A stretch of 64,000 bases of DNA, taken from the NCBI GenBank assembly GCA_007376445.1, contig VMGF01000002.1, positions 13,673-77,672 on the forward strand. Direction: 5' to 3'. How positions within the stretch are numbered: position 1 is the stretch's first letter; the number at the start of each line of letters is the position of its first letter. Under the pieces are notes generated by a model. It searched no databases, was not told the origin of the DNA, and worked only from the letters and a program-made list of their open reading frames with translations. Source of the stretch: Parcubacteria group bacterium Gr01-1014_3 (GTDB lineage Bacteria > Patescibacteriota > Minisyncoccia > UBA6257 > WO2-44-18). The position numbers and the translations under genes are program-made. Of this stretch, positions 124 to 53,052 are shown piece by piece.

Positions 124-240
124 AATATAATTTTAAATGCTAAATTTTTAATTTTAATTTAATGACCAAATGTTAAATTTCAAAAATTAAGTCATTGAAA
201 ATTAATTTAAAATTTATAATTAAAAATTTAAAATTACTTT
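124..240. repeat. AT-rich ~110-bp intergenic repeat, copy A
   Basis: Near-identical to 13414-13524 and 52944-53052, and to the reverse complement of 46072-46185. Shared core: aatgaccaaatgttaaatttcaaaa…tcattgaaaattaatttaaaatttataatt. Confidence 0.6.
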
Positions 241-241
241 T

Positions 242-1027
242 ATGACTTTCTGGGATCTAATTTTGGTCTGGTTCGCGCCGATAGCGATTGGTATCGGCAT
301 CGCTTTTTACTACGCGAAAAGAAAAAAAGATCCTTCGGCTGGCGGAGAAGAATCTCACCCAGAACTTTTATCTATGATCGCGCACCAGCTCCGGTCTCCG
401 CTTACTTCCGTTAAATGGATCAGTGAGCGGCTGGCTACTACAAAATTGGAAGCCGATCAGCGGGATAAAGTTTTAGAAATCCAAAAAGTTAATCAGCATC
501 TGATCGATCTCCTGGAAAATCTGAAAAAAATCGGCAAGGAGAAGCTGAACGGCGAAGCTGAAGGCCGCGAGTATTTTTTAGCGAATCTGGTTAATGAAAT
601 TACAGGTTTATTTAAATCTCCAGCCGAACGTAAAAATATCCGCATTGTTCTCGGCGTTCATCCCGGCATCGGCAAGATCAGGACGGATAAATTTCTGCTC
701 ACTGAGGCTATGAAAAATATCCTTGAGAACGCTATCGATTACTCTCCGGCTGGTTCGACTATCGATATTTCGGTTCGCCAGGACGGAGGGCGCTATGCAA
801 TCGCTATCAGTAACGACAAGGCTTGTCCTGAGCAATTCGACCTTGCTCACTGTAAACTTGCCGAAGGAGGAGGTATTTCGGAGAAAGACGGGGGAGGCTT
901 GGGTTTATTGATCGCGCAAACTGCTATTCGGGCGAATCGAGGAGAGTTAGCGATGAAATCTCCAAATGGACAGGGAGCGTCGTTCGTTATATCCTTGCCA
1001 GGCAGTGAAAATTCGACTGCTCGCTAA
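242..1027 (+). CDS. small sensor histidine kinase (HisKA + HATPase_c, one N-terminal TM)
   Basis: H-box MIAHQLRSPLTSV. G-rich ATP-lid motifs (DGGGLGLLIAQ, GQGASF) are at the C-terminus. Hydrophobic N-terminus. Confidence 0.75.
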   Translation: MTFWDLILVWFAPIAIGIGIAFYYAKRKKDPSAGGEESHPELLSMIAHQLRSPLTSVKWISERLATTKLEADQRDKVLEIQKVNQHLIDLLENLKKIGKEKLNGEAEGREYFLANLVNEITGLFKSPAERKNIRIVLGVHPGIGKIRTDKFLLTEAMKNILENAIDYSPAGSTIDISVRQDGGRYAIAISNDKACPEQFDLAHCKLAEGGGISEKDGGGLGLLIAQTAIRANRGELAMKSPNGQGASFVISLPGSENSTAR

Positions 1028-1065
1028 TGCGAGCCCAGCAACACGGTCGAATTTCTACTTCCTGG
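998..1065. repeat. conserved 20-bp-stem hairpin element, copy R1 (ccaggNagtgaaaaYtcgaS…StcgaRtttctactNcctgg)
   Basis: Inverted repeat around a 28-nt loop. Homologous copies lie at 29760-29817 and 46961-47023 and carry compensatory changes. Confidence 0.6.
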
Positions 1066-1093
1066 CTTGCCAGTGAACTAAGTGCGGGGATAC

Positions 1094-1159
1094 TAAATTC
1101 AATTTTAAATTTTGTAATTAATTCATTAAATTAAAATTGAAAATTTAGATTTTAAAATT
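1094..1159. repeat. diverged partial copy of AT-rich intergenic repeat (F)
   Basis: aattttaaattttgtaattaattcattaaattaaaattgaaaattt resembles the core of copies A-D and abuts the start codon at 1160. Confidence 0.35.
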
Positions 1160-1873
1160 ATGAATATTCATTACCCGGTCCGAATTAACCGCTACCTCGC
1201 GCTTCAAAATATTTGCAGCCGAAGAGAGGCGGATAAGTTAATTTCGGCCGGGCAGGTAAAAATCAATAATAGGATCGCCAAGCTGGGGGATCTGGTAAAA
1301 GAAGGCGACGAGGTCAGCCTGAGTGAAGCCGCAAAGAAGCGGGAGGAGTCGTTGGTTTACATCGCGTATAACAAGCCTTTTGGCGTTGTAACTCACAGCG
1401 CGCAAGACGATGAGTCCGAGATACTTGATGATCCGGCGCTTCAAAAATTTGGCCGACTTTTTCCCGTGGGCAGGCTGGACAAGGAGTCTCATGGCCTGAT
1501 CATACTGACCAACGACGGCAGGATCACTGGAAAATTACTGGAGCCGGAGCGGGAGCATGAAAAAGAGTATCTGGTAAAAACTGATCGGGATGTTGCTGAA
1601 GGTTTTTTAAGGAAAATGGGGAAAGGAGTGCAGCTAGAGGACTTTCGAACAAAAAATTGCGAAGTAGAGCCGGCCGGCCCTAAGTCTTTCCGGATCATTC
1701 TTACCGAAGGCAAGAAGCATCAGATCCGGAGAATGTGCGCGGCGCTCGGTTATCAGACGGTGGACTTAAAAAGGATCCGGATAATGAATATCAAATTAGA
1801 CGGACTCAAAGAAGGAAAATTCAGGATAATTATCGGACAGGAGCTGAAGACTTTACTAAATAGCTTAAAATAG
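1160..1873 (+). CDS. 16S/23S rRNA pseudouridine synthase, RsuA/RluB family (S4 domain + catalytic domain)
   Basis: S4-like N-terminus (RINRYLALQNICSRREADKLISAGQVKIN). Catalytic motif GRLDKESHGLIILTNDG. Confidence 0.8.
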   Translation: MNIHYPVRINRYLALQNICSRREADKLISAGQVKINNRIAKLGDLVKEGDEVSLSEAAKKREESLVYIAYNKPFGVVTHSAQDDESEILDDPALQKFGRLFPVGRLDKESHGLIILTNDGRITGKLLEPEREHEKEYLVKTDRDVAEGFLRKMGKGVQLEDFRTKNCEVEPAGPKSFRIILTEGKKHQIRRMCAALGYQTVDLKRIRIMNIKLDGLKEGKFRIIIGQELKTLLNSLK

Positions 1874-1887
1874 GCATAATTGGGTCT

Positions 1888-3363
1888 ATGACCGCGAATT
1901 GGGGAGACGTCGTTTTGAAATTTAATAAAGTCAGCTTTGCCTATGGACCGAAGAAAACCATTTTGGATTCGGTTGATTTTGTTATCCGCGAAAGAGCCAA
2001 GCTTACCCTGATGGGGCAGAACGGCGCCGGCAAGTCCACTATTTTTAAATTGATCTCTAAAGAGATTCAGCCGGAGGAGGGTTCGATCAATATTAAAACC
2101 GGCGCCACGATTGCTACTTCGATGCAGGTGATACCAAAAGATTGGATGAATGACACCGTGATCCAGTACTTTGAGCGCGCTTTTTCTAAAAAAGTTTATG
2201 ACATTGAGCCTCGCATCAATAAGATATTGAATGTAGTTAACCTGAAAGCGGACCTGAAGAAAAAAATGAATCAGTTCTCCGGCGGCCAACAGGCTCGTTT
2301 GCTTTTGGCTTTCGCCCTCATTCAGAACCCAGACATTCTTTTATTGGATGAGCCTACTAATAATCTCGATAAAGTCGGCATTGAGCATCTGACCAAATTT
2401 TTGATTGAGTATTCTAAGACCTGCGTGGTTATTTCTCACGACGCGCACTTTCTGAACTCATTCACCCACGGAGTTTTATATTTAGATAATTTTAGCGGTA
2501 AGGTTGAGCAGTATGTCGGTGACTATATGAAAGTAGTAGCGGAAATCGCTATACGAATCGAGCGTGAGCGGAAAAAGAACGCGATGTTAAAAAAGGATAT
2601 AGAGAACCGCAAAGAGCAGATGAATTATTTCGCGCAAAAAGGTGGAAAAATGCGTGATGTCGCGAGGAAAATGCGGGAAGCTATCCAAGAACTCGAATCC
2701 CAGCTGGTGGATCTCCGTCAAGAAGATAAAACCATCAAAGATTTCATTATTCCAGTGCAGTCTTTTGAGGGATCGGAGCGTCCGGACTGGAAGATTGTGG
2801 AGATAAAGGCGGTGAATATCATGACGACCGGCAAGCCGTCGGCGAAGAAGGTAAATATCGTTTTAAAGCGGAAAGAGAAGCTTTTGATATCTGGCCCTAA
2901 TGGTATCGGCAAAAGCACTCTACTGGAGGCTTTAGCGAGTGGTAAGGCTAAGGGTATGGGTATCTCCGATGACATTAAGATCGGATATTATAAGCAGGAC
3001 TTTTCCGGTCTGGATTTTGACGAGACGGTTTACAAAACCCTCTCGGACGCGATGACCGGCGGTTCGGATCAGGAACTACGTTCGGCGGCCGCCCAATTTT
3101 TACTGGACGCTGATCTATTGAATAATAAAGTGGGCTCGCTTTCCGAAGGTCAAAAAGGACTGCTTTCTTTCGCACGATTTGTTCTGCAGCGACCTGGCTT
3201 ATTGATCATGGATGAGCCGACTAATCACATCAACTTCCGCCACTTGCCAGCGGTCGCCAAGGCTTTAGATAAGTTTGAAGGCGCGTTGATTCTCGTTAGT
3301 CACTCGCCAGAGTTTATCAAGCAGATCAATATTGATCATAAATTGGACCTTGGGGATTTATAA
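1888..3363 (+). CDS. ABC-F family ATPase (two tandem ABC domains, no TMD)
   Basis: Two Walker A motifs (GQNGAGKST, GPNGIGKST). Two signature motifs (FSGGQQARL, LSEGQKGLL). Two Walker B motifs (LLLDEPTN, LIMDEPTN). Confidence 0.8.
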   Translation: MTANWGDVVLKFNKVSFAYGPKKTILDSVDFVIRERAKLTLMGQNGAGKSTIFKLISKEIQPEEGSINIKTGATIATSMQVIPKDWMNDTVIQYFERAFSKKVYDIEPRINKILNVVNLKADLKKKMNQFSGGQQARLLLAFALIQNPDILLLDEPTNNLDKVGIEHLTKFLIEYSKTCVVISHDAHFLNSFTHGVLYLDNFSGKVEQYVGDYMKVVAEIAIRIERERKKNAMLKKDIENRKEQMNYFAQKGGKMRDVARKMREAIQELESQLVDLRQEDKTIKDFIIPVQSFEGSERPDWKIVEIKAVNIMTTGKPSAKKVNIVLKRKEKLLISGPNGIGKSTLLEALASGKAKGMGISDDIKIGYYKQDFSGLDFDETVYKTLSDAMTGGSDQELRSAAAQFLLDADLLNNKVGSLSEGQKGLLSFARFVLQRPGLLIMDEPTNHINFRHLPAVAKALDKFEGALILVSHSPEFIKQINIDHKLDLGDL

Positions 3364-3365
3364 AA

Positions 3366-3497
3366 CCGAAACTAACTCTTTTTCAGAACCAGAATAACCG
3401 GCCTCCAGCGGGCCGGTTTTCTTCTCTCTCGGTGGTTTTTAAACCAAGCAAAACCGCCTCCGAGATGTTCCGAAAAAGAGTTAGTTTCGGTTTTTTT
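3366..3497. repeat. structured ~130-nt repeat / candidate ncRNA, copy 1 (long closing helix, internal hairpins, 3' T-run)
   Basis: ccgaaactaactcttttt at 3366-3383 pairs with aaaaagagttagtttcgg at 3473-3490. Internal hairpin ccggcctccagcgggccgg. Homologous copy at 39574-39724. Confidence 0.5.
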
Positions 3498-4437
3498 ATT
3501 TAAGCAGTCCTTTAAGATTTTCCAGCGCGGATTTTAGTGCGTCGAGAAGCGAGGCGGTGGCGTTTTGAGTATTTGCAGAAGAGCAAAGACTGGCGAAGTT
3601 GGTGCCGCCGGATTCATCGTACCAGTACCGATAATGCAGAGTTCCATCCGGGTCCATAAGCTCCGGATCGAAACCGCCATACATCCCTCCTTGCTTAAAT
3701 AGCAAAATATCTTTATAGCAGACGGCGCCTGGCGCGTTGGAGTTAGACGCTGTTTTATCATAGAACCTAATTGGCTTGGTATGATCCGTGAAGGTGTATT
3801 TAGCAGGGTCTGTGAATTCGCAGATGTTTTTAATGCCAATATAATTCAATTCATTAATATCCTCACAAGGTGAGTAGCCAGTGATCGGGTTAACATTAGC
3901 TACTGTATTAGCTGGATCTCCGGCATAAAGAAAGGCGCGTTTGTCCCTGGGCGATACTCCAGCATACAAGAAACTGCCGGTGCCAAAGTTAATGTATCGG
4001 TTAGGAAGAACGGTGCCGGTACCAGTTTTAATGACCGGCTTTGGGGCTGGAGCGGGCGCCGGAGCTGTAGCTGGTGATGGAATCGGCGTTGGCGTTGGCT
4101 GAGGCGCTGGAGCTGGCGTACCCGCCTGGGCTCGAATTGTGGTGAATTTTGCCCTTGTTATTGGCCCAACTATACCAACGGCTTCAATTCCATTTTTAGC
4201 CTGCCATCTTTTAACGGCCGCTTCAGTCAGTAAGCCAAAGTATCCGGTTACCAAACCTTCTGGATAAACATCTTTATACTGCGCCAAGAAAGTTTGGAGC
4301 AGGCGAACGTTCTCGCCGCGGATGCCTACGTATAATGGAGTGGTTAATACTGGTGGCAATATTGATGAAGCAGTCTGCGCGGAGGCTATCGTGGCCAAAC
4401 CCAAAAACAACGAGCTCAAAAGTGTTTTTTTTACCAT
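3496..4437 (-). CDS. secreted protein with peptidoglycan-binding (PG_binding_1-like) domain and Pro/Ala-rich linker
   Basis: Signal peptide MVKKTLLSSLFLGLATIASAQ. Start trimmed to ATG at 4437 (complement of 4435-4437). PG-binding-like LLQTFLAQYKD…GYFGLLTEAAVKRWQAKNG. Linker PAPAPQPTPTPIPSP. Confidence 0.6.
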   Translation of the reverse strand: MVKKTLLSSLFLGLATIASAQTASSILPPVLTTPLYVGIRGENVRLLQTFLAQYKDVYPEGLVTGYFGLLTEAAVKRWQAKNGIEAVGIVGPITRAKFTTIRAQAGTPAPAPQPTPTPIPSPATAPAPAPAPKPVIKTGTGTVLPNRYINFGTGSFLYAGVSPRDKRAFLYAGDPANTVANVNPITGYSPCEDINELNYIGIKNICEFTDPAKYTFTDHTKPIRFYDKTASNSNAPGAVCYKDILLFKQGGMYGGFDPELMDPDGTLHYRYWYDESGGTNFASLCSSANTQNATASLLDALKSALENLKGLLK

Positions 4438-4528
4438 AGTTAAATTATAGCATCCCATACATAATTTGTTATGTGTGGGATAGCAAATTGAATAAAAATA
4501 AGCCGCTGATTGCGGCATTCGGTCTTGT

Positions 4529-4602
4529 TGGCTGGGGGGCTAGGAATCGAACCTAGATCTGCTGCTCCAAAGGCAGCCGTGTTACCATTGCACTACCCCC
4601 CA
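4529..4602 (-). tRNA. tRNA-Gln (anticodon UUG)
   Basis: The reverse complement folds as a cloverleaf. Acceptor stem UGGGGGG/CCCCCCA with U1-A72, G73 and encoded CCA. Anticodon stem GCUGC/GCAGC with loop CUUUGGA. T-arm CUAGG-UUCGAUU-CCUAG. Confidence 0.85.
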
Positions 4603-5268
4603 ATAATTACAGATGTGGTCTACCCAGGCGGAAATTTTTCTATTTAGATTCGTGCTTTTCCGCACTATGATTCTCAGTAATCCATTATAGGCGATTCCCG
4701 TATTTTTTCGACCAGTCTTTAGTTTATGCTCCTTGAAATATACTTTAATTTTTCTCTTATCGCAAGACACTGTTTTTGCCCAAAAACTCAACGCCTTTTC
4801 GATATCCGCGGTGTTATGTATATATAAAGCGAAGGCGATTTCATTTTTCGGTATTTTTATAATTGTTAACAACCAGCCTAAAAATACCTTTATCATTTTT
4901 GGATCAGAATTATTAAAATTTACTTGCTGGCTGACCAGGTGTTCCTTTGCTTTTGAGCCCTCAGCCCAATAGAGCATAATACCGGCAAGCCATAAATGAT
5001 CATTGTTGAGTTCTCGCATTTCTTGAAAAGCCTCATTTTTAATTTGATCCATAAGAGTAAGGCGTTGCTGATGTCTGGCAATCGCGCCCCTTTGTTGAGC
5101 AAGAATTTTCTTTTTAGTTAGGCGCCGATGTGTTTGTTTTGCTAATGCAACCGAATGTAGCCATGACGATAATGTTGATTTTGCAACCGGAATTTGCGCC
5201 AAAATTTCGGAGTAGGTTAGCCCCCGCCTTCTTAGGATTATTGCCTGCGTTTTTGGATCACTTTTCAT
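4582..5268 (-). CDS. hypothetical protein with N-terminal HTH; weak LAG…EG-like motif (possible homing-endonuclease-like)
   Basis: HTH-like GLTYSEILAQIPVAKSTLSSWL. Motif WLAGIMLYWAEGSK. The last ~20 nt overlap the 5' end of tRNA-Gln. Confidence 0.4.
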   Translation of the reverse strand: MKSDPKTQAIILRRRGLTYSEILAQIPVAKSTLSSWLHSVALAKQTHRRLTKKKILAQQRGAIARHQQRLTLMDQIKNEAFQEMRELNNDHLWLAGIMLYWAEGSKAKEHLVSQQVNFNNSDPKMIKVFLGWLLTIIKIPKNEIAFALYIHNTADIEKALSFWAKTVSCDKRKIKVYFKEHKLKTGRKNTGIAYNGLLRIIVRKSTNLNRKISAWVDHICNYWGVVQW

Positions 5269-5336
5269 ACTGACATGAACACCAAACGTCTTTTTTAGTA
5301 TAACATACCGCTATTCAATTTAAAACACTTCATTTT

Positions 5337-6233
5337 TTACTTCATAATCAAATAAAGTCCGATACCCATGATCGCGAAGAGAATTGTCTTTTTTATAATA
5401 CTAAAAGCATCCGTTTTCTCTCGAAACATCCCGTCAGGAGATTTTTTCGAGAAAATAACCGCGTTTAAAAGAACAAAAAATGGCTGGATTGAAACAATAC
5501 CGGCAATCACAGTTACCGGCGCCATGGAGAGCGCGTAAGTGCCAATGAGCGATCCAATAATACTTAACAAATCTTCCAGGAATATCCATTTAAAAGATTT
5601 TTTAAAGTTGGGGTAATCTTCGGCAACATCCCTTCTAAATGCCGGAATTACGAGAAGCGTGAAACAAAATACGATAGCTATTAACGAGGTGCCGATATAT
5701 CCGGTCGTCCAGCTAACGTCATTTAAAATAAATTTGTACATTACCCAATCAATGGTGCCGATTAACGAGGCTAAAATCATGTAAAAAAATGACTTATTCA
5801 ACCGCAGCTTTCCTTTGGCGCCGTTAAGCGAAAGGAGCACGCTGCTTAATATTATGGTGAAAAATCCCACGTATTGGGTAGTTTTCAGAGTTTCTCCAAT
5901 GATAAAGTAGGCGAGAATTGGTATAAAAATTTTTCCGATCGAGAAAAGAGAACTAACCACGGCGGTATCTTCATTTTGGAGGGCCTTATAATAAGGGAAT
6001 ACATAAAGCACTTCGGCCAAACCGACGATTAAAAATGCCAGCAAAAGCCCCACCGGCGGAATAGACGGTTTTTCCAGTAGCGCGACAAAAGGAATAAATA
6101 TCGGCGCGATTAAAAATCCATAAAAAATACCCGCGTTAATCTTTTTAAACAACTTTCCGGCTATGTAGTTATCTACAACATACGCCCAGGAATGAAAAAC
6201 CGGATTGAGAAGGGTTAAGAGAAGAAGCCCCAT
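5337..6233 (-). CDS. polytopic membrane protein, DMT/EamA-like transporter
   Basis: About 10 hydrophobic segments in ~300 aa with a two-halves pattern. Call is by composition and topology only. Confidence 0.45.
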   Translation of the reverse strand: MGLLLLTLLNPVFHSWAYVVDNYIAGKLFKKINAGIFYGFLIAPIFIPFVALLEKPSIPPVGLLLAFLIVGLAEVLYVFPYYKALQNEDTAVVSSLFSIGKIFIPILAYFIIGETLKTTQYVGFFTIILSSVLLSLNGAKGKLRLNKSFFYMILASLIGTIDWVMYKFILNDVSWTTGYIGTSLIAIVFCFTLLVIPAFRRDVAEDYPNFKKSFKWIFLEDLLSIIGSLIGTYALSMAPVTVIAGIVSIQPFFVLLNAVIFSKKSPDGMFREKTDAFSIIKKTILFAIMGIGLYLIMK

Positions 6234-6235
6234 AA

Positions 6236-7345
6236 TTATTTCTTCAGATTTTCAATAATGGCGATCTCGAGAGGTACGATCGCGAAGGGGGAGTAGCGCA
6301 TCTCTCCGTAAGCGCGAATCAGGGATTTTATAAAGGGAAGATGTTTTTCCGGAATGATCTGACCGCTTTGACTTTTAATCTGCTCTAATTCTTTTTTTGT
6401 TAATTCATGTTGAAAAAGTTCTTCGAGCTTCGGATCAAATTTTAAACTCAATATCCGCCGCCAATAATGAATAAGTTCTTTGGCGAAGTCCACCAGGTTA
6501 TATCCGCCCTCATCCAACTTGGAGATATAAGCCAGAGCCTCACTTAAATTAGAATCCAAAATCAATCGGGAAAATTCCGAGGTCCGGGTAAAGCCGACTT
6601 TACCGATGATCTTTTCCACATTCTCCACTTCTACCTTTTCTTCCAGGCTAGCCAGCTGATCCAGCAGAGATTCCGCGTCACGCGCGCTACCATCGGCGGA
6701 AGCGGCGATAAGTTCGATAGCTTCCTCCGAGACATTCATTTTTTCTTCTTTGACCACTCGCGTGAGTTTCTGCGCGATCGATTCTACGGACAATTTTTTA
6801 AAATGGAATCTTTGCGCGCGAGAACTGATGGTCGACGGAATTTTTTCGTATTCGGTTGTGGCGAGAATAATGATCGTGTACGCCGGCGGTTCTTCCAGGG
6901 TTTTGAGAAGCGCGTTGAAAGCTTCCCGGGTCAACATGTGCGCTTCATCAATAATAAAAATTTTATACGGATAGGAGCTAGGGGAGAGGCGGATGCTTTC
7001 TTTGAGATCGCGCATTTCATCGATGCCCCGGTTGGAAGCGGCATCAATTTCCACCACGTCCAGCGCTCTGCCGGCGTCAATATCTTCGCATCGGCCGCAT
7101 TTATTGCAGGGTTCGCCTTTGTCTTTAAATTTTTTATCCTTGATCCGGGTTTCGCAGTTAGCGATCTTGGCGAGCAGTCGAGCAGTCGTGGTTTTGCCGG
7201 TGCCCCGAGGACCATAGAAAAGATAAGCATGCGCCAACTTGTCCTGGCGGCCGGCGTTTTTTAATATTTCGGCCACGGACTGTTGGCCTAAAACCTCCTC
7301 GAAATTCTTCGGACGGTACTTTCGGTAGATAGCTAATGACATCAA
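6236..7345 (-). CDS. dnaX: DNA polymerase III subunit gamma/tau (short form)
   Basis: YRPKNFEEVLGQ, HAYLFYGPRGTGKTT, Zn module CNKCGRCEDI, VVEIDAASNRGIDEMR. Confidence 0.9.
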   Translation of the reverse strand: MMSLAIYRKYRPKNFEEVLGQQSVAEILKNAGRQDKLAHAYLFYGPRGTGKTTTARLLAKIANCETRIKDKKFKDKGEPCNKCGRCEDIDAGRALDVVEIDAASNRGIDEMRDLKESIRLSPSSYPYKIFIIDEAHMLTREAFNALLKTLEEPPAYTIIILATTEYEKIPSTISSRAQRFHFKKLSVESIAQKLTRVVKEEKMNVSEEAIELIAASADGSARDAESLLDQLASLEEKVEVENVEKIIGKVGFTRTSEFSRLILDSNLSEALAYISKLDEGGYNLVDFAKELIHYWRRILSLKFDPKLEELFQHELTKKELEQIKSQSGQIIPEKHLPFIKSLIRAYGEMRYSPFAIVPLEIAIIENLKK

Positions 7346-7386
7346 CTTTATTTTAGCCCAGTTTTGGCATAAAATGTATATATACG

Positions 7387-8607: not shown

Positions 8608-8608
8608 A

Positions 8609-13072: not shown

Positions 13073-13378
13073 GTGGAGATGGCTACCATGCTCAAGCGTA
13101 GATGGAATTCTGCCAAGAATGCCTTTACTAGATTGGTCGTGGTCAGTTCGCGCTTTTCTTTCTCACTTTGCGTTGGGTTTTGGTGTGGGGTTATCGCTCT
13201 GTGCGTTGATCTGGATCATATTACGATGCTGTGGGGCCACCCCCATGGAAGAGTGGCGCATACGCCGCTCTTTGTTCTGGCTTGCCTTGTCTGTATCTAT
13301 TATGGTGCACGTCTTGGAAGACTACTTGTTGGGTTGGTTTTGAGAAAAATACGCAAAAATAATCAAGGACCGTCTTAA
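13073..13378 (+). CDS. small hydrophobic hypothetical protein
   Basis: 101-aa ORF with two predicted TM segments. An overlapping alternative frame (13071-13343) also exists. No homology recognised. Confidence 0.3.
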   Translation: MEMATMLKRRWNSAKNAFTRLVVVSSRFSFSLCVGFWCGVIALCVDLDHITMLWGHPHGRVAHTPLFVLACLVCIYYGARLGRLLVGLVLRKIRKNNQGPS

Positions 13379-13413
13379 TTGATGGTCCTTTTACTTTATA
13401 CGCTCGTATACTC

Positions 13414-13524
13414 TAATTTTAAATTCTAAATTTTTAATTTTAATTCAATGACCAAATGTTAAATTTCAAAATTAAATCATTGAAAATTAATTTAAAATTT
13501 ATAATTCAAAATTTAAAATTATTC
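13414..13524. repeat. AT-rich ~110-bp intergenic repeat, copy B
   Basis: taattcaatgaccaaatgttaaatttcaaaattaaatcattgaaaattaatttaaaatttataattcaaaatttaaaatta matches copy A almost base for base. Confidence 0.6.
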
Positions 13525-16225: not shown

Positions 16226-16274
16226 ACATGGTATCTAATTTTCAATTTTGCAATTTTCAATTTACAATTAAGGC

Positions 16275-21078: not shown

Positions 21079-21134
21079 CGATTTTGTACATTATCGAGTA
21101 TCATTTATACTTAATACTAAATAAACACAGAACA

Positions 21135-21235
21135 ATTTTAAGTTTACAATTTTAAATTTTAATTTAATGTTCAAATTACAAAATTTAGAAATTAATCATT
21201 AATTAAAAATTGATAATTAAAAATTGAAAATTTCT
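21135..21235. repeat. diverged copy of AT-rich intergenic repeat (E)
   Basis: ttttaatttaatgttcaaattacaaaatttagaaattaatcattaattaaaaattgataattaaaaattgaaaattt aligns with the core of copies A and D. Ends at the greA start. Confidence 0.4.
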
Positions 21236-37613: not shown

Positions 37614-37917
37614 TCGCTAGCTCCCTTCTGCCTTTCGGCATGTAAATGAACTTGCAATAAAATACCATTTTATATGGATTACGTCAATTCAAAGAAAACG
37701 CCCATCTCCACAAGGGGACAGGCGTTTTCTAAGAATAAAATATTCACAACGAGAAATTATCTGTCCCTAATGGGTTGGATTTAGCACCTTACGGTAAAGC
37801 AGGTTGCTGGAGCTTCATAGGGCCAAGACCCTCGGCTCACTCTTGATAATATTTCGTTGTCAAAGTTCAAGTGCTTATTACAACCGCTATCCTATCAGAT
37901 TGGTTTCCTTAGGTCAA

Positions 37918-44378: not shown

Positions 44379-44615
44379 TCCGGTCTGAATTTTCAAGCTG
44401 ATAAGCGTAGAAAATTAAGCCACCGGAATTAAACCCCACACTAATTTTGCAGATATATAAGAAGCGCTACGCGGGCGGCGAATAGCCGTGATCCCTAGCG
44501 TATCGCTGTTTTAATTTAGAAAAGACTTAAAGATATAAAAATTTAAATATTGAAAATGCAAAATTAGTGCGGGGTAATCTAGCTATACTTTTAATGATTT
44601 TATATAATTAATAAT

Positions 44616-45240: not shown

Positions 45241-46014
45241 TTATAAATAGCCAATTTTTTGTAACCAAAAAACATTTTCCCATTCCCACAATTTCTTAGC
45301 CGCTAAAAATGCCTGAAAATCCTCCCGCCAATAAGGGAATTCTTTTAATTCCACGATACCTTTGAGTTCTGACCAATCATGGCCATCTTCCGGGCAAGCG
45401 GGAACTGTGCCGCGCCAAGCGGTCTTAATCTTGTCCTGGCCGCCCTTTGGCCGAAGAGTAGCCTTACAGCGCTGACAATCTTTTTGCTGATCAATGCGCA
45501 GGATCCAGCGAGTTTCCAGACCGGCAAACTCCGGTTCGCGCTTTAAGGCGTCCATATAGGCAGAGGTTTGGAGATTGTAATCGCGATAGATTGATTGCGA
45601 TGTCTTAATATCCAACACGCCGAACTTACCACCAATCGTCGCCATCGCGTCGATCGTGCCGGAATACCGATGGGCAAAGTTAATGATCCGGCGCTCAACA
45701 TGCGGCGCCTCAACTTTAATATCGTTATTCTTTAAAAAATTAATCGTGGCTTCAACGGCTGGAGCAATCTCCGGGGGTATGACAGGGGATTCACCAACCA
45801 TGAATTTTTCCACGATTTCATGGACGAGCGTGCCTTCTTCGGCTGATTTTTTGGTTTTCGCTTCGGCTTCTTCAAAATTCTTCGCGGCGGCGTAATAGCG
45901 GTAAAGCGCTGGTTTGGATTTAATTTCTAAAATTTTAGTAACACGCGGGAGCCACTGACCATCAATTTCATATCCGGCCGCGGCTTTAAATTCTTCCGCT
46001 GTTTTGTAATACAT
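45241..46014 (-). CDS. PD-(D/E)xK nuclease, RecB/Cas4-like, with C-terminal Cys3-His cluster
   Basis: Motif I GTLVHEIVE. Motif II YSGTIDAM. Motif III VLDIKTS. QxxxY as LQTSAYMDAL. C-terminal CQRC…CPEDGH. Confidence 0.55.
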   Translation of the reverse strand: MYYKTAEEFKAAAGYEIDGQWLPRVTKILEIKSKPALYRYYAAAKNFEEAEAKTKKSAEEGTLVHEIVEKFMVGESPVIPPEIAPAVEATINFLKNNDIKVEAPHVERRIINFAHRYSGTIDAMATIGGKFGVLDIKTSQSIYRDYNLQTSAYMDALKREPEFAGLETRWILRIDQQKDCQRCKATLRPKGGQDKIKTAWRGTVPACPEDGHDWSELKGIVELKEFPYWREDFQAFLAAKKLWEWENVFWLQKIGYL

Positions 46015-46071: not shown

Positions 46072-46185
46072 TAATTTTAAATTTTTGAATTATAAATTTT
46101 AAATTAATTTTTAATGATTTAATTTTGAAATTGAATATTTAGTCATTAAATTAAAATTAAAAATTTAGCATTTAAAATTATTAAA
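46072..46185. repeat. AT-rich ~110-bp intergenic repeat, copy C (inverted orientation)
   Basis: Reverse complement matches copy A nearly base for base. Confidence 0.6.
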
Positions 46186-46930: not shown

Positions 46931-46952
46931 CTGCCCCAATGGGCAGTTTTTA
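46929..46952 (+). terminator. rho-independent terminator
   Basis: ctgccccaatgggcag followed by TTTTTATTT. Confidence 0.7.
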
Positions 46953-46960
46953 TTTGCTTG

Positions 46961-47023
46961 CCAGGAAGTGAAAATTCGACTGTTTTGGACTCATTTCCGG
47001 ATGGTCGAATTTCTACTTCCTGG
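46961..47023. repeat. conserved 20-bp-stem hairpin element, copy R2
   Basis: ccaggaagtgaaaattcgac…gtcgaatttctacttcctgg. Both arms and the cttgccagg/cctggcttg flanks are near-identical to R1. Confidence 0.6.
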
Positions 47024-47090
47024 CTTGAATCCCGATGTAAACCAGAGTAAGATTATCTTTATCCGTTCCTTGAAAATAAAGGAGAAACAT

Positions 47091-48884
47091 ATGAAGGAAG
47101 AGAAAATCATCTCTTTCGGCGAGTATTTGGATCGCGTTAAAAAGGATCCGCAAATCGTTACGACGGCGCATCAGCTAATCTATAACGCCATTATGAAGAA
47201 GGGTGTCGAGAAGGTGTTCGGAGAGCTTTACGGCATAGATTCGGTGATTGAAGAGGTCGTGGACTACTTCGGCAAGGCTAGTTTGGGTGGCGGACGATCG
47301 AAACGATTCTTGTTCTTGCTTGGCCCTCCGAGTTCTGGAAAGAGCACGATCGCGCGAGCGATTGCCTGGGCTATTGATGATGAGCCAATCTATTGCATTG
47401 AAGGCTGTCCAATCCGTGATCAGCCTATTTATCTTTTGAAGCGGCGTGATCGTTTGGCGCTGGCCAAAGAACTTGGCATCTATCTCCCAGAAGGGGATAT
47501 CTGCCCGGTTTGCCGGAAGCGGCTAAAAACCGAGTTCGACTATGATTACACGAAGTTCAAGGTTAAGATCGATAAAATTTCTGTCCGATCGTTCAATGGT
47601 TTTGCCTCGGTAGATCCCACGGATCCGATGTCATTTGATAAAGCGCGGCTGATCGGTTCGGTAACTCTTGGCGAAAAAGAAGGTAATCCGGACAACTTTG
47701 AGTTGGACGGCGCGATTCTTCGCGGTAATCGTGGCGCGCTTGAATTAGTGGAAATCTTAAAGAATCTGACTGAAGCTCTGTACGTTCTTATCGAAGCAAC
47801 CCAGAGTAAGACTATCGAATCTCCCGCGGGCCGCACTGAAAAGATCTATGTCGATCTCGCGATCATCAGCCATTCCAATGAAGCGGAGTGGGTAAAGTTT
47901 TATTCCGATAAAAAGAACGAAGCCCTGCTGGATCGCATGCACGTGATCAATGTGCCGCATAATATCCGGCTCGACGATCAGATTAGAGTTCTGAAGGGTA
48001 TGAGTATCGCGACACCACGCCAGAGCCTTAATTATCATGTTAATCCGCTTAGTCTTAAGTTGGTCGCGGCCTTTACGGTCATGACGCGCTTACAGATTGG
48101 CGGTGAAACTGATGCTGATGAAGCGTTAGCGCGGATGCTGGCCTACAACGGCTTGATTGCCGAAGGGTCGGATGCAACACCCGCGACGCTGATGAAGCAA
48201 TATCCTCGCGATGGCTGGCAAGGCATTTCTAACCGGGATGGCGCGGAAATCTTGGAAATGTCCCTGTCTATGAAACAGTCGGATAAAGAGATGTGCATTG
48301 ATCCGATCTCTGTCCTGGATGCAATTGATAAGTTCATCTCACAAGACACGAATAAGAAATTTTCAGTTAAAGAAAAGGCTAATTGGCCGCCTCTTGCTAC
48401 CATCCTCAAAAAGGACTTTGCGCGGGAAGCCGCCAAGCAATTCTGCACGATCGCTGAAGAATCTACCCAGCTTTGCACCGATACTTTTGAAAAGTATCTG
48501 GAAGCTATCCGTAATTTGCTGAATCGCGTTGAGCTGAATGATCAGCAAAAAGACCTGGTAACTTATGTCGAGAACGGCTGGCGCGATAAAAGTGACGACG
48601 AAAAAAACGATAAACGCTCTGATATCAGTCGCCATATCCACTCATTCACGGAAGCCTCCGAGGATATGAAAACCGGTGTTTATAACTATATCAACAGCAC
48701 CGTCATTATTGATGTCATCAGCCGGCTCCTCTTGAGCGAGCAGGAGCTGACCAGTTTAGATAAACAGAACGACTGGCTCAATCTGGATCAGTTCGTAAAA
48801 GAAAAGTTCGAAAAGCTGAACTATTGTCCGAAGTGCCTGCGCCGAGTAGCGCATTGGCTCAAGGATAATCAGAAGTTTCCTTAA
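47091..48884 (+). CDS. prkA: PrkA-family serine protein kinase (AAA ATPase + kinase-like)
   Basis: Start trimmed to ATG at 47091 after AAGGAG. P-loop LLGPPSSGKST. C-terminal PrkA_C region. Followed by yeaH- and spoVR-like genes. Confidence 0.8.
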   Translation: MKEEKIISFGEYLDRVKKDPQIVTTAHQLIYNAIMKKGVEKVFGELYGIDSVIEEVVDYFGKASLGGGRSKRFLFLLGPPSSGKSTIARAIAWAIDDEPIYCIEGCPIRDQPIYLLKRRDRLALAKELGIYLPEGDICPVCRKRLKTEFDYDYTKFKVKIDKISVRSFNGFASVDPTDPMSFDKARLIGSVTLGEKEGNPDNFELDGAILRGNRGALELVEILKNLTEALYVLIEATQSKTIESPAGRTEKIYVDLAIISHSNEAEWVKFYSDKKNEALLDRMHVINVPHNIRLDDQIRVLKGMSIATPRQSLNYHVNPLSLKLVAAFTVMTRLQIGGETDADEALARMLAYNGLIAEGSDATPATLMKQYPRDGWQGISNRDGAEILEMSLSMKQSDKEMCIDPISVLDAIDKFISQDTNKKFSVKEKANWPPLATILKKDFAREAAKQFCTIAEESTQLCTDTFEKYLEAIRNLLNRVELNDQQKDLVTYVENGWRDKSDDEKNDKRSDISRHIHSFTEASEDMKTGVYNYINSTVIIDVISRLLLSEQELTSLDKQNDWLNLDQFVKEKFEKLNYCPKCLRRVAHWLKDNQKFP

Positions 48885-48963
48885 TTATATAACCCCGATT
48901 TACATCGGGGTTATTTTTGTTAAGATTATGGCAGTCTTTTCATAACTAAATAAGAGGTGCTAA

Positions 48964-50067
48964 ATGACTCTCAAAGACAGCCGTAACGACAAAGTTACGC
49001 CGCAAACAAGCTGGGATATTCATCGCCATCAGTCCAAATTAAGACGCGCGCTACGTGAACAGATCGAGGAGATCATTCTAAGCCAACCGGTGATAACTGG
49101 TAATCCCGATAAAGTCATTCAGATACCAGTCCGATCGTTACAAGAATTTACTTTTCAATTCAAAGACGGCGGGGGAGCGGGTAAGTTCGTGGAAGGCATT
49201 CCCAAAAAAGCCGGCACTAAGGCTGGTCAGGAAATGATCGAAGCGGACATTCGTCTACAACTCGCGATCGAACTGATGATGGAAGATCTGGAGATCCTCG
49301 ACTTATTCCGCGCTATTGAAGAGGGAGAGCGGGTCCCTAGAAGCCGCACACGGCCATGGGGAAAGAAACATTATGGTAACCGGGCTCGTCTGATGAAGCG
49401 GGAAACCGTAAAAAATAAATTGGCCAGAGTACGAGCGACCAAGTCTCAATCCAAGGCATTCAAAGCGGAAGATAGCCGTTATCGGCACTTCAAAGAAACA
49501 CCAGACGGCGATTACCGCGCGGTGATATTCTATATTATGGATATTTCGGGCTCCATGGATGGCCGAAAACTCTATCTTTGCCGGGCGCTTAATTACTGCA
49601 TTAACCAGTATCTCAGGCAGATATATAGCGAAGTGCAGGCGCGATTTATCGTCCATGAAGCGAAGGCCGAAGAAAAGACTGAGGAAGAATTTTTCCGGAC
49701 AAAATCGAATGGCGGCACGCAACTATCCACCGGGACCGAAGAAGCCCTAAAAATCATCGATCGGGATTATTCTAATGGGGATTGGGACATTTATGCCTGG
49801 CATGCCACGGATGGCGATAATTCTTCGCAAGATAACCCCATGTTCGCGAAAGAACTTGGTAAACTATCAGAAAAAGCCCGCGCTATCATGCTTTGTGAAA
49901 CTGATACATCGATCGGATCGGCTAGTCAGTCGGATGCCCTGAAAGAACTGCGCGAAAAGGTTAACAACTTTTTTGTGTTCTTATTGGACCGGAAAGAAGG
50001 CATCCGCGACACCTTAAAAGGTATGCTGGAAGTCCTTAAAGAAAGGAGCGGGGTCAATGAAAGATAA
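48964..50067 (+). CDS. YeaH/YhbH (DUF444, vWA-like) protein
   Basis: FYIMDISGSMDG metal-ion-site-like motif. Conserved position between prkA and spoVR. Confidence 0.75.
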   Translation: MTLKDSRNDKVTPQTSWDIHRHQSKLRRALREQIEEIILSQPVITGNPDKVIQIPVRSLQEFTFQFKDGGGAGKFVEGIPKKAGTKAGQEMIEADIRLQLAIELMMEDLEILDLFRAIEEGERVPRSRTRPWGKKHYGNRARLMKRETVKNKLARVRATKSQSKAFKAEDSRYRHFKETPDGDYRAVIFYIMDISGSMDGRKLYLCRALNYCINQYLRQIYSEVQARFIVHEAKAEEKTEEEFFRTKSNGGTQLSTGTEEALKIIDRDYSNGDWDIYAWHATDGDNSSQDNPMFAKELGKLSEKARAIMLCETDTSIGSASQSDALKELREKVNNFFVFLLDRKEGIRDTLKGMLEVLKERSGVNER

Positions 50068-51358
50068 TGAATTCAAGAAGCTCGATAAATGGATCATTAA
50101 GATCGAAGATCGGGCCAGGGAATTCGGGCTTAAATTCCGCGCCCAAAACTTCACGGTATGCAGCGCGGAAAAAATGTTGGAGAAAGAAGCCCAGCTCGGC
50201 GGCTACGATCTTTATTCGCATTGGAGCTTTGGTAAACGATTTGCGAAGAGCAAGACGCTTTACACGTATAAGTATCACTTCTTACCATATGAAATGGTCA
50301 TTAATACTGATCCTTGCGATGCCTGCTTGTTAGACAGCAATCCGCTGACATACAACCTGCTGGTTGCCGCGCATGTCTATGGGCACAACGATTTTTTCTG
50401 CAATAATCTGATGTTTAAGGATACGGAGCCAAAATACATTCAGATGTATCTCCGTGAAGGCGGCCGAAGGATCGAGGAATATATCCGGAACCCCAGGATC
50501 GGGCTCGAGAACGTGGAGAGCTTGCTGGACGCGGCTCACGCAGTTTGGATGATTAATGACTCGGCCGGAAGGAGTTTCTTGGACTTCGTGCTTCGTGATT
50601 TTGAGCATCTTAGCGATTATGAACGGGATATTTTAAAAACCGTTGATACCTGGTCCAGGCATGTCCGCGGGAATATGAAAACCAAAGTCATGAACGAAGG
50701 GTGGGCGACTTACTGGCACTGGAAGATCGTCGAAAGCTTTTCCAGCGAGATCAAGAGCGAATTCGGTCCGTCAGCCTATGTTGATGAGATGCTGGAGATG
50801 CATAGAGGGGTCGTCAGGCTTCCCAATAATCTCAAAAGCCTTAATCCATACCGGGTTGGGCTTCTCACTTGGGAAAAGATCTGGAATGATCTTATGTGGA
50901 ATCAAAAATTTTCGCCCGTGGATTTTTTCAACATCCGGGCCGGAAAAACGGATGTTGAGTTCATCTCGGAACATTTCCGCGGTGAACCACTGATCTACGA
51001 GAAATTCTTAAAACCGATCCTCAAGGCTAACGGAGTTAGTCAAAAGATTGATGTTGCCGGCGAAACAGAAAAATACCGTAAAATGATTATTGGATCCTGC
51101 GGAGAAATTCTGATCCCGAGATTCAATTTCTACATTGATAAAACACCTTCCGGAAGATCACTCATGCTGATTCATGTTTTTGATGGCAGAGAGTTGGAAA
51201 GGGGAGTAATACTCCATAATACCGTTAAATTGATCCATCGTATTTGGCCAGGGGAAATTATTCTCAAAACCGTTGGATCCGAAAAAGGCGGTAAAAAGAA
51301 CATCGCGCTGGTCTGGCGCAATGGAGAATTCCAGAAAATTGAAATGCCGGCGAGTTAG
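50057..51358 (+). CDS. SpoVR/YcgB-family protein
   Basis: Size and position as the third gene of the prkA-yeaH-ycgB trio. Confidence 0.7.
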   Translation: MKDNEFKKLDKWIIKIEDRAREFGLKFRAQNFTVCSAEKMLEKEAQLGGYDLYSHWSFGKRFAKSKTLYTYKYHFLPYEMVINTDPCDACLLDSNPLTYNLLVAAHVYGHNDFFCNNLMFKDTEPKYIQMYLREGGRRIEEYIRNPRIGLENVESLLDAAHAVWMINDSAGRSFLDFVLRDFEHLSDYERDILKTVDTWSRHVRGNMKTKVMNEGWATYWHWKIVESFSSEIKSEFGPSAYVDEMLEMHRGVVRLPNNLKSLNPYRVGLLTWEKIWNDLMWNQKFSPVDFFNIRAGKTDVEFISEHFRGEPLIYEKFLKPILKANGVSQKIDVAGETEKYRKMIIGSCGEILIPRFNFYIDKTPSGRSLMLIHVFDGRELERGVILHNTVKLIHRIWPGEIILKTVGSEKGGKKNIALVWRNGEFQKIEMPAS

Positions 51359-51363
51359 ATAAC

Positions 51364-51395
51364 GGCCGCGTAGCCCTAGGGGAGCGCGGCCTTTT
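51364..51395 (+). terminator. rho-independent terminator
   Basis: ggccgcgtagccctaggggagcgcggcc followed by TTTT. Confidence 0.65.
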
Positions 51396-51537
51396 AATTT
51401 TCCTACGGAAAATTACCCCGCCATAGGCGGTGGTTTCTCCTTATGTACCTGTCGCACAAGATATATTTTGCGACATATGTCATAGGGATGTTCGGGAGTA
51501 CTAAAAAGACCCCTTCTCAGGGGCCTCTTTAGTTAAC

Positions 51538-51984
51538 TTACGGAGTCTGCTGACCTTCCTTGTATCGCTTGATGGCTTGTACTACCTGGGAGTCGTCTAC
51601 TAGATTCTCCACGAAAATTATGTGATCTTTGTTAATTTTCATTAAGTCATCCGGACGATGTAATTCCACGGTGCCAAGCTTCACCAGGCTCAACTGCTGG
51701 GTCGGCTGAGGGGTCTTTTGGCCCTGAACCGGCTGCAATACCTGATTAACCTGCAGATAGTAGATATCGGTCAATCTTGGGAAATTCGAGTTCAGATCGG
51801 ATAATTTACCGAAATAAACCTGTCCATTAGACAAGAATACCGCCTGGAAACTGGATCCTGAACCGAGTATCGGTAAGGAAAAACCATTCTGCCAGAGATA
51901 ACCGCCTAAGGCGACCAAGAACACTACCGCAAGCAATAAAACGACCCAGAAAACCTTTTTTGAAGACTTTGCTGATGATTCCAT
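51538..51984 (-). CDS. hypothetical protein with one N-terminal TM
   Basis: VFWVVLLLAVVFLVALGGYLW hydrophobic anchor. Terminator hairpin at 51508-51531 on the minus strand. Confidence 0.4.
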   Translation of the reverse strand: MESSAKSSKKVFWVVLLLAVVFLVALGGYLWQNGFSLPILGSGSSFQAVFLSNGQVYFGKLSDLNSNFPRLTDIYYLQVNQVLQPVQGQKTPQPTQQLSLVKLGTVELHRPDDLMKINKDHIIFVENLVDDSQVVQAIKRYKEGQQTP

Positions 51985-52165
51985 TGTAAAATATTAATTC
52001 AAAAAGCCGACCTTTTATTAAGTTTGTACCACTTAATTATATTACTCTGGCGCAAGCCGTCAAATCGGCCGTGTGAATAAGTTTATTGTTTTCTCTGAGC
52101 GAAGCTCAGTCAGAAACAATAAACCCCGCCTTTTTGCGCGCAGCGAAAAGGGAGGGGTAAATTCA

Positions 52166-52930
52166 TTATATTAGCGTTAAAATCTCAGCTCCATCATCTG
52201 TTATAACCACCGTATGTTCAAAGTGGGCCGACAAGCTGCCGTCTTCCGTGGAATAACTGTCATCGTCATTCATAACTATCTCGGATGTTCCGGCGCTGAC
52301 CATCGGCTCGATCGCAAGAACCATTCCAGCTTTCAATTCTAATCCCTTGCCTCTTTCTCCTTCATTAAAGACGCTCGGATCTTCGTGAAGTTCACGGCCA
52401 ACGCCATGGCCGGTCAAGCCCTCAACCACCTTAAATCCAGCTTTTTTTACAGTAGAGCTGATAGCCCAACCGATATCGCCAAGGTGATTGCCCGGCTTAA
52501 CCTGTTTAATACCCTCAAAAAGGGCTTTTTCGGTCGTTTTAAGCAGCTTTTGGGCTGTATTAGTAGTTTCACCAATACCTATCGTCCAGGCCGCGTCAGC
52601 GTAAAATCCTTCATAAATCACCCCAAAATCTAGCTTGAGTAAATCCCCGCTTTTTAATTTATAATTTATCGGCACACCATGGACAACGACATCATTTAAA
52701 GATGTACAAATAGTGCATGGATATGGTTTTTCCGCGCCGTATGGTTTGTATCCCAGGAAAGCTGGCCGGCCACCTTCTTTGGTAATCAATTTCTTGGCGA
52801 GAGCATCCAGGGTCTTTAAGCTGACGCCTTCTTTCGCTTCGGCTAACACAACCTTGGCGACTTTCGCCAAAATCTGCCCAGCCGCTCTGATTTTAGCTAT
52901 TTCGTCTTTGGTTTTTATGAGGACAGACAT
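52166..52930 (-). CDS. map: methionine aminopeptidase type I
   Basis: Metal-binding Asp and His residues in conserved contexts (DAAWT, HGVGRELHE, AIEPM). Confidence 0.9.
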   Translation of the reverse strand: MSVLIKTKDEIAKIRAAGQILAKVAKVVLAEAKEGVSLKTLDALAKKLITKEGGRPAFLGYKPYGAEKPYPCTICTSLNDVVVHGVPINYKLKSGDLLKLDFGVIYEGFYADAAWTIGIGETTNTAQKLLKTTEKALFEGIKQVKPGNHLGDIGWAISSTVKKAGFKVVEGLTGHGVGRELHEDPSVFNEGERGKGLELKAGMVLAIEPMVSAGTSEIVMNDDDSYSTEDGSLSAHFEHTVVITDDGAEILTLI

Positions 52931-52943
52931 ATAAAGTTATGGG

Positions 52944-53052
52944 GAATTTTAAATTTCCAATTTTAAATTTTAATTGAATGAATAAATTACAAAATTTGAG
53001 ATTTAATCATTGAAAATTAATTTAAAATTTATAATTAAAAATTGAAAATTAT
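52944..53052. repeat. AT-rich ~110-bp intergenic repeat, copy D (between adk and map)
   Basis: tcattgaaaattaatttaaaatttataattaaaaattgaaaatta is identical to the 3' half of copy A. Confidence 0.55.

Follow-up and report, generated by a model that had tools for sequence, protein, structure and literature searches.

An A/T-rich palindromic repeat in a Patescibacteria genome, probably a non-autonomous mobile element with relatives in rRNA genes

The 64-kb stretch of contig VMGF01000002.1 analyzed here (positions 13,673 to 77,672, hereafter the window) belongs to a metagenome-assembled genome (MAG) of Parcubacteria group bacterium Gr01-1014_3, whose nearest named relatives are Candidatus Harrisonbacteria, and contains several copies of a short A/T-rich repeat. 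We interpret this repeat, with a probability of roughly 0.7, as a small non-coding, non-autonomous mobile element of ~100–110 bp, a palindrome built almost entirely of A and T, whose family is spread through Patescibacteria and whose copies in the window are recent insertions. The initial annotation, made from the letters alone, had suggested a mobile element resembling a miniature inverted-repeat transposable element (MITE) and had recommended a presence/absence comparison at orthologous sites. That comparison bears the suggestion out: relatives carry the orthologous site without the element for all five full copies, with flanking proteins 72–95% identical, and independent assemblies break within two of the copies.

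Patescibacteria genomes are tiny and are thought to hold little mobile DNA. A 2024 review of prokaryotic MITEs does not mention Patescibacteria (PMC10969869), and our text searches on MITEs yielded no description of such elements in this group.

Copies of the repeat in the window

The window was searched with an nhmmer profile built from copies A–D. Together with direct reading, the search returned five full copies (A–E), a truncated one (F) and a fragment of an arm whose membership is doubtful (G), within a few bases of the positions initially annotated:

Copy A, 128..236, + strand, core AATTTT...AAAATT at 129–235 flanked by T128 and A236; nhmmer 129–236, E = 3.9e-21; fills the gap between the upstream stop codon (121–123) and the histidine kinase ATG at 242.
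Copy B, 13414..13521, + strand; nhmmer 13415–13521, E = 2.8e-21; lies 24 nt past a terminator-like hairpin (13365–13390) and 95 nt before ATG 13617 of an amidohydrolase gene.
Copy C, 46072..46180, − strand (inverted); nhmmer 46073–46179, E = 1e-17; lies in the divergent spacer between ATG 46014 (− strand) of a PD-(D/E)XK nuclease gene and ATG 46262 of a 222-aa gene.
Copy D, 52944..53051, + strand, core 52945–53050; nhmmer 52945–53051, E = 5e-19; lies in the adk–map junction, with the genes on the minus strand and the map ATG 14 nt from one element end.
Copy E, 21133..21233, + strand, core 21134–21232; nhmmer 21134–21232, E = 1.2e-8; interrupts the greA leader downstream of a conserved TTGAC..TATCAT promoter and ahead of ATG 21245.
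Copy F, 1096..1159, truncated (~64 nt), strand not assigned; nhmmer 1098–1159 (partial), E = 2.6e-4; combines a short left arm with a right-arm-like TCATT...TAAAATT and abuts the pseudouridine synthase ATG at 1160.
G, 16237..16269, + strand; nhmmer 16236–16271, weak (E = 0.57); lies between ftsW and murG.

Full copies measure 99–109 nt, and the repeat as a whole has a density of ~1 copy per 10 kb here. Copies A, E and F end 6, 12 and 0 nt from a start codon, respectively, and the end of copy D supplies the adk stop codon (53049–53051). The orientations and junctions first described were recovered, including the inverted copy C in its divergent spacer, copy A beside the kinase ATG and copy D between adk and map. 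All copies are non-coding, with stops in every frame and no listed open reading frame (ORF) inside. The genes around them have housekeeping functions and include a histidine kinase, a pseudouridine synthase, ftsW, murG, greA, aminoacyl-tRNA synthetases, adk, map and the ribosomal-protein operon.

The copies contain 8–11 G or C letters each, giving a G+C content of 7–10%, against 37–56% per kb across the window and ~46% for the genome. Six of the seven A/T islands in the window are these copies. The 24-mer AAAATTAATTTAAAATTTATAATT is exact in A–D and has six matches in the window at up to 3 mismatches, compared with none in 100 shuffles. An A/T island at 44506–44569 was rejected as a copy, having no nhmmer match, as was a heptad run at 26329–26365, which is homologous coding sequence of the alanine racemase gene alr.

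An identity of about 90% had been proposed for A–D. This figure stands for A–C (A–B, 94.5% over ~110 nt; A–C and B–C, about 88%) and does not extend to D, which is 76–83% identical to A–C and is a mosaic of an E-like left arm and centre with an A/B-like right arm. Copy E (67–81% identical to the others) represents a diverged subfamily, and at least two subfamilies of the repeat are present in this genome. Among the three candidates initially listed as diverged, E proved to be a full copy and F a truncated one; G is only a 33-nt run of left-arm-type heptads (AATTTTC AATTTTGC AATTTTC AATTTAC AATT), and its family membership is doubtful. The internal inverted repeat AATGAC...GTCATT, ascribed to each copy, is perfect only in A.

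Orthologous sites without the element

Fetched loci, comprising relatives, metagenome contigs and independent assemblies, are denoted by L and a number. At copy A, the 118-nt gap in the window corresponds to 6 nt (TAA TTTTCA ATG) in L137 and to 1 nt in L138, whose histidine kinases are 77% and 72% identical, respectively. The L142 spacer orthologous to that of copy B runs from terminator to promoter without an element, and the spacer containing copy C measures 247 nt here versus 122 nt in L132, with conserved flanks. At the site of copy D, adk and map overlap (TAATG) in L132 (Map 89% identical), lie 14 nt apart in L135 and enclose an unrelated 71-nt spacer in L134 (95%). The greA leader holding copy E is uninterrupted in L159 (GreA 95% identical) and in L142, while L140 has an unrelated insert at the position of E. 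Copy F is missing in L138 and is replaced by a different GC-rich palindrome in L137; at the site of G, L140 has an unrelated 145-nt palindromic spacer.

Since several outgroups agree at A, D and E, gains in this lineage are a far more economical explanation than a series of precise losses. The closest relative lacks an element even at the site of copy E, the most diverged of the copies, so that the divergence of E reflects a different source subfamily rather than age in place. The copies are lineage-specific, multi-copy insertions, and the places they occupy are non-coding but transcribed, namely spacers within operons, one 5′ leader, the promoter region between two divergent genes and a spacer that follows a terminator.

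Independent assemblies agree with this picture. Three short-read assemblies of the same organism (L009–L011) begin within the right arm of copy A, and a fourth assembly, L139, begins at window position 13492, inside the right arm of copy B; breaks at these points are expected if near-identical copies are numerous genome-wide. Copy E was assembled through and is identical in an independent assembly of the same organism. These data also bear on the reading that the repeats are chance or convergent A/T-rich promoters, or an artefact of assembly, to which we give almost no weight. Low-complexity A/T sequence can inflate similarity, and chance does produce single GAAAATT arrays, both within coding DNA and on unrelated contigs of Bacteroidota. 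However, E-values of 1e-17 to 1e-21 remain after bias correction, the 24-mer is absent from every shuffle, A and B retain their near-identity over the full unit, copy E and the arms of A and B recur in separate assemblies, and the sites are empty in relatives. The statistics and the independent assemblies together refute this reading.

Several relatives have palindromic or repeat-rich inserts of their own (L134 350–420, L140 1972–2116 and 7012–7220, L137 1134–1265), which occupy exactly the spacers that hold D, G, E and F here. The same gene junctions seem to be repeatedly colonised by different element families.

Anatomy and predicted fold-back

Beyond what was initially annotated, the analysis revealed a palindrome running the whole length of the unit, a construction from heptads and a connection to rRNA genes. 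The unit is an imperfect palindrome with arms of 49–58 nt that are 72–76% complementary and with ends of the form TAATTTTAAAT...ATTTAAAATTA, thus having terminal inverted repeats, as in a prokaryotic MITE. The left arm is built from AATTTTN heptads and the right arm from NAAAATT heptads, with 11-mers of the TCATTGAAAATT type further inward. The spacing of 11, 7, 7 and 7 nt and the left/right asymmetry are kept across lineages, even where the variable heptad base has switched from A/T to G/C. Counting from the outer ends, the second left-arm heptad always departs from the pattern (it reads, for example, AATGCTA, AAGTACC or AATAACA) and the third right-arm heptad is always [G/T]ATAATT. The near-A/T-only alphabet and the heptads make alignments ambiguous; the arms were compared end-anchored.

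From its complementary ends, every copy is predicted to form an extended stem-loop as RNA. The modeled folds of the window copies reach −12 to −19 kcal/mol, with A–U pairs throughout and z = −1.9 to −3.2; many relatives of the repeat reach z = −5 to −7, and the mean over 24 members is −3.6. None of the Rfam 15 covariance models, run over the whole window at the gathering threshold and at E up to 1, overlaps a copy. An intrinsic terminator scan found no site within copies A or B, where the stems are A–U only and not G+C-rich.

Family members in other lineages and in rRNA genes

A 24-mer scan of a genome collection returned one clear member, in a Moranbacteria MAG, and a metagenome scan combined with iterative profile searches yielded ~40 distinct members. 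By exact-protein look-ups, the carrier contigs belong to Moraniibacteriota, Colwellbacteria and "Patescibacteria". The family is present in several Patescibacteria lineages, both in intergenic spacers and at rRNA hairpin tips.

The window copies themselves are not in rRNA, as Rfam scans found no rRNA gene in the window. In L049, three family members lie within a 23S rRNA gene: one forms a 181-nt insertion in the hairpin at positions 273–297 of the Rfam large-subunit (LSU) model, and a second occupies the apical loop of the hairpin at LSU positions 1206–1226, where L127 has a member as well. This latter hairpin follows the conserved ACCGAAG motif and is apparently helix 45 of the E. coli structure. 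In the Colwellbacteria-like L020, a member lies within a 164-nt insertion at positions 458–464 of the small-subunit (SSU) model, at a 16S hairpin tip. The rRNA-borne members carry extra GC-rich inverted outer arms, which the window copies lack, and have strong predicted folds (−34 to −39 kcal/mol, z = −6 to −7). They score 25–28 bits against a profile made from the window copies only, compared with 8–11 bits for the best of 300 dinucleotide shuffles, and direct sequence comparison places their left halves close to purely intergenic members such as L063.

The fold-back and the rRNA-borne members raise the question of whether the element works chiefly as RNA, with a transcribed A–U hairpin serving as a processing site, attenuator, terminator or small RNA that separates cistrons, and with dispersal secondary. 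Whole-length folding across the family would suit such a role, as would the location of A and D within operons and of E in a 5′ leader, and the rRNA-borne members sit at hairpin tips like classical intervening sequences (IVSs) excised by RNase III (PMC4990558). We nevertheless regard this explanation as improbable, given that no Rfam model matches even at relaxed E, the hairpins in the window are weak, the terminator scan gave no site in A or B and both orientations relative to transcription occur.

A few related observations concern other contigs. The L049 locus (1–8800) is a Patescibacteria rRNA operon whose 23S gene has at least four A/T-rich hairpin insertions and two group I introns (6301–6536 and 7447–7690), with a tRNA between 16S and 23S. 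Contig L018 contains a tandem array at 3347–5310 with a ~135-nt period, the unit of which has CAATGGA heptad runs and the GATAATTGAAAATT end motif; these mark the array, which is on a further metagenome contig, as a satellite-like relative of the family. In L006 (Flavobacterium aquicola DSM 100880), an 87-nt A/T palindrome at 3139–3235 lies in the spacer between a fadB-like gene and a thiolase gene, and its right arm equals window copy B over 38 nt; transfer, convergence and chance extension of a 24-mer match are all possible. A scan of viral contigs gave single heptad arrays only and no full element. Single (GAAAATT)n arrays next to start codons also turned up in Bacteroidota and in large viral contigs; these probably represent something else and were kept apart from the family. 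Three ~100-kb viral contigs with 51% G+C (L146, L149, L153) and two Bacteroidota contigs (L077, L081) have AATTGATAATTGAAAATTGAAAATT(GAAAATT)n arrays at several intergenic sites each, placed 3–10 nt from a start codon in AATTTTC-to-ATG orientation. They resemble a recurrent motif, regulatory or promoter-like, that belongs to Bacteroidota and their phages and is distinct from the palindromic element.

Promoter-like ends and leaderless starts

Both element ends contain an outward-facing TTTAAA-17-TAAAAT, a candidate sigma-70 promoter by consensus alone (score 9/12), which in copy A takes the following form:

Outward promoter-like site in the right arm of copy A, 206..234, + strand: TTTAAA, 17 nt, TAAAAT (consensus match).

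The terminal TAAAAT of copy A ends 7 nt before the histidine kinase ATG at 242, a leaderless geometry. Four tandem GAAAATT heptads necessarily give TTGAAA-17-GAAAAT, and for this reason each end would offer an outward sigma-70-like promoter, which could start leaderless transcripts such as that of the histidine kinase. The host context appears suited to such starts, with a −10 box often 6 nt from the ATG in this genome. A TANNNT hexamer begins at −12 in 12 of 68 window genes, with four more at −13 and three at −14, against a background of about two genes per other position, and a Shine-Dalgarno-like motif precedes only about 13 of 67 window genes. Genes with this leaderless signature include those at 23503, 38424, 40297, 45241–46014(−), 51538–51984(−) and 53049–53774(−); the TATAGT + 6 nt + ATG arrangement of the PD-(D/E)XK gene is conserved in L132.

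These features could be read as a regulatory cassette under selection, that is, a portable unit acting as a bidirectional promoter, as an UP element or as an array of binding sites for some nucleoid protein or regulator, copied from spacer to spacer by recombination and kept for leaderless expression of the neighboring gene. In its favor, the geometry of −35 and −10 hexamers is retained by 20 of 24 right ends in the family (4+4 hexamer test) versus 8 of 24 left ends, ORF starts peak 5–8 nt past the right ends (10 of the 26 starts within 60 nt), the genome has a strong leaderless signature, three copies lie close to start codons and the heptad spacing is conserved across lineages. On the other hand, closeness to start codons follows from insertion into 1–20-nt spacers, the genes downstream of B and C have their own promoters, conserved in relatives without the element, and the "promoter" end faces a stop codon in D and four other members. 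Relatives express the same genes without any copy, and the geometry is kept equally in 16S- and 23S-borne copies. Its persistence inside rRNA genes indicates that a promoter is probably not why the element exists and may be a by-product. We therefore consider a cassette of this kind unlikely, if somewhat less so than a primarily RNA-level role; of the promoter/UP cassette initially offered as an alternative, what survives is a possible effect of insertion. Having broken a translational coupling, an inserted copy could hand the downstream gene a leaderless promoter of its own, as the sequences at A and adk–map suggest.

Mobilization, target site and weight of the evidence

The preferred reading, insertion of a non-autonomous mobile element, would entail an enzyme acting in trans, with the conserved, non-identical heptad ends as the sites recognised by the mobilizing machinery. 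Insertion would probably occur at TA or at other A/T-rich targets such as TAA stop codons. TA is present on both sides of A, B and C, whereas D is flanked by GA/TA and E by CA/TT; family-wide, TAA stop codons often fall at the element ends, overlapping them at −2 to +9 nt, which fits insertion at TA/TAA within very short spacers. Once inserted, the element may be tolerated within transcripts because its RNA folds back on itself, which is the simpler account of this tolerance; the folded RNA would be either a neutral helical extension or a double-stranded RNase III substrate, as for classical rRNA IVSs, which are cut out, and Correia elements (PMC4990558, PMC2649163). Promoter donation and RNase III processing are both plausible proposals. 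A 7-nt CTTAATA/CTTAAAA repeat around the larger insert of E has no counterpart at the other copies and was judged coincidental, and what had looked like a distant pair of end motifs in L049 consists of separate small copies within one 23S gene.

Several points weigh against this interpretation. A TA duplication is indistinguishable from the inverted-repeat ends, because T...A merely extends the palindrome, and the empty site of C (..TAATAAG..) is equally compatible with a 0-, 2- (TA) or 3-bp (TAA) duplication. Pfam scans of 50 window ORFs gave no transposase, integrase or RAYT domain, and ~1 Mb of fetched loci contained no longer element with the same ends (end motifs 0.6–3 kb apart). The copy counts refer to the 64-kb window. 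In principle, the empty sites could be deletions in relatives, which would need repeated independent precise losses. The promoter-like geometry is maintained in rRNA-gene members, where a promoter would be useless, and element orientation relative to neighboring genes shows a weak, non-significant bias (10:5). Efficient recognition of the window copies by RNase III is uncertain, as their predicted fold-backs are weak and all A–U.

Relation to known elements

In behavior, the element is closest to Correia elements and ERIC-type palindromes and, through its relatives, also close to rRNA IVSs; by sequence it belongs to none of them, and it falls outside the definitions of repetitive extragenic palindromes (REPs), bacterial interspersed mosaic elements (BIMEs) and intrinsic terminators. 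It is best described as MITE-like or IVS-like, being A/T-only, heptad-built, asymmetric at its ends and placed in operon spacers, with relatives in rRNA hairpin tips.

REPs and BIMEs share with it a short, highly repeated intergenic palindrome mobilized in trans, in their case by the REP-associated tyrosine transposase RAYT, of the IS200/IS605-like type. They differ in that REPs are 20–40 nt long with a GTAG-type head, whereas the unit here is ~108 nt without such a head. The Pfam scan of 50 window ORFs gave no Y1-transposase domain, and no RAYT-type gene was found in the window, so the REP-like label first proposed was not upheld. To our knowledge, no Correia or enterobacterial repetitive intergenic consensus (ERIC) element has been described within an rRNA gene, where the present family does have members, and dispersed families of intergenic repeats are not known among classical IVSs.

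Correia repeat enclosed elements (CREEs) of Neisseria are non-coding, about 105 or 155 bp long and bounded by inverted repeats; once transcribed, they form a hairpin that RNase III binds or cleaves, and their mobilizing enzyme is unknown (PMC2649163, PMC10969869). Like the repeat described here, they have many intergenic copies, differ in presence among strains and often sit at TA, and the outward sigma-70 promoters that they form at the gene-proximal end have a counterpart in its promoter-like ends (PMC2649163, PMC10969869). The sequences are unrelated: the 26-bp Correia repeat and its core motifs CCGGTACGG and TCAGGACAA (PMC2649163) are not in any window copy, and the core motifs cannot exist in an element of 7–10% G+C. 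Moreover, the window element is palindromic throughout and heptad-built, has no identified integration host factor (IHF) site or demonstrable TA duplication, and resides in Patescibacteria.

The IVSs of Salmonella, Campylobacter, Leptospira and Coxiella are A/T-richer than their host, have complementary ends and form a stem-loop that replaces a small loop; in 23S rRNA they typically occupy helices 9, 25 and 45, with a sporadic distribution suggestive of horizontal transfer (PMC4990558). Their origin has been open since 1990, "remnant of transposition" being one hypothesis (PMC4990558). The likeness lies in the family members of L127 and L049 (23S hairpin after ACCGAAG) and L020 (16S hairpin tip), and the difference in that the window copies are outside rRNA and only rRNA-borne members have GC-rich outer arms.

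ERIC and YPAL elements are ~127–170-bp imperfect palindromes in transcribed intergenic DNA, found in either orientation and at lineage-variable copy number, and their hairpins act on mRNA stability as RNA (PMC10969869). They resemble the repeat in these respects and differ in sequence and taxon, ERIC being neither A/T-only nor heptad-built. Rickettsia palindromic elements are likewise ~100–150-bp palindromic repeats of a reduced genome, with unusual insertion places (PMC10969869); they characteristically insert in frame into protein genes, whereas all copies here are non-coding and the sole coding look-alike (alr) is a chance match.

Possible effects on operons and a possible source of rRNA insertions

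A dense and recently active repeat family would break short-read MAG assemblies. In the window, the repeat comes between essential genes that are translationally coupled, such as adk and map, and it could rewire operons. That one family occurs as polymorphic insertions in intergenic DNA and also inside rRNA genes, at hairpin tips, makes the transposition-remnant hypothesis of IVS origin directly testable in public data.

Insertions in rRNA genes of the candidate phyla radiation (CPR) are already known and have mostly been treated as introns (PMC9297842), and CPR bacteria retain RNase III (rnc) (PMC12641178). Our literature search found no text tying these insertions to a dispersed intergenic repeat. 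We tentatively propose, as a broader scheme that is possible rather than likely, that at least part of the intervening sequences in Patescibacteria rRNA derive from one phylum-wide, transposase-less A/T hairpin family. Such a family would settle both in the spacers of operons and at the tips of rRNA hairpins (23S helix 45 and others, the 16S V3 hairpin), be removed from transcripts by RNase III, be moved by some enzyme through its conserved, non-identical heptad ends, and plant outward promoters that make coupled genes leaderless.

Other features of the window

Two further dispersed repeats were noted. The first is palindromic, ~75–85 nt long and of normal G+C (987–1069, 29749–29821 and 46950–47027), with the sequence CCAGGnAGTGAAAAyTCGAsTG ... 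GTCGAATTTCTACTnCCTGG. One copy lengthens the C-terminus of the histidine kinase relative to L138, and another overlaps the listed GTG start (46968) of a PrkA-like ORF that is probably overlong as listed (638 aa versus 598 aa in L132). This ORF belongs to a PrkA / DUF444 / SpoVR trio (46968–51358) that is conserved in L132.

The second is ~49 nt long, GGAGTAATCGCGAATATACAAATAAAAGATT(T)AATATTGCGAATAA, with the internal inverted repeat TCGCGAATAT / ATATTGCGA. Its copies at 17408–17452, 30198–30246 and 63539–63587(−) are 98–100% identical, and a weaker one lies at 16192–16223. At three sites the repeat spans the stop codon of the upstream gene, and at two sites a start codon follows a few nucleotides past its 3′ end (ATG 17462 and the minus-strand ATG 63537); a TAATAT −10 box stands 6 nt upstream of ATG 17462.

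A beta-oxidation-like cluster at 30283–36045 (−) encodes an acyl-CoA dehydrogenase, a FadB-like enoyl-CoA hydratase/3-hydroxyacyl-CoA dehydrogenase and a thiolase. Its G+C content (0.50–0.56) exceeds that of the rest of the window, such a cluster is unusual for a Parcubacteria genome, and it may be acquired DNA. An S-adenosylmethionine (SAM) riboswitch (RF00162, 69.7 bits) at 37754–37852 (−) lies upstream of a 268-aa ORF (36862–37668) that has no Pfam match, and an ORF at 40745–43075 encodes a VirD4/TraG-like coupling protein (T4SS-DNA_transf, TraG-D_C).

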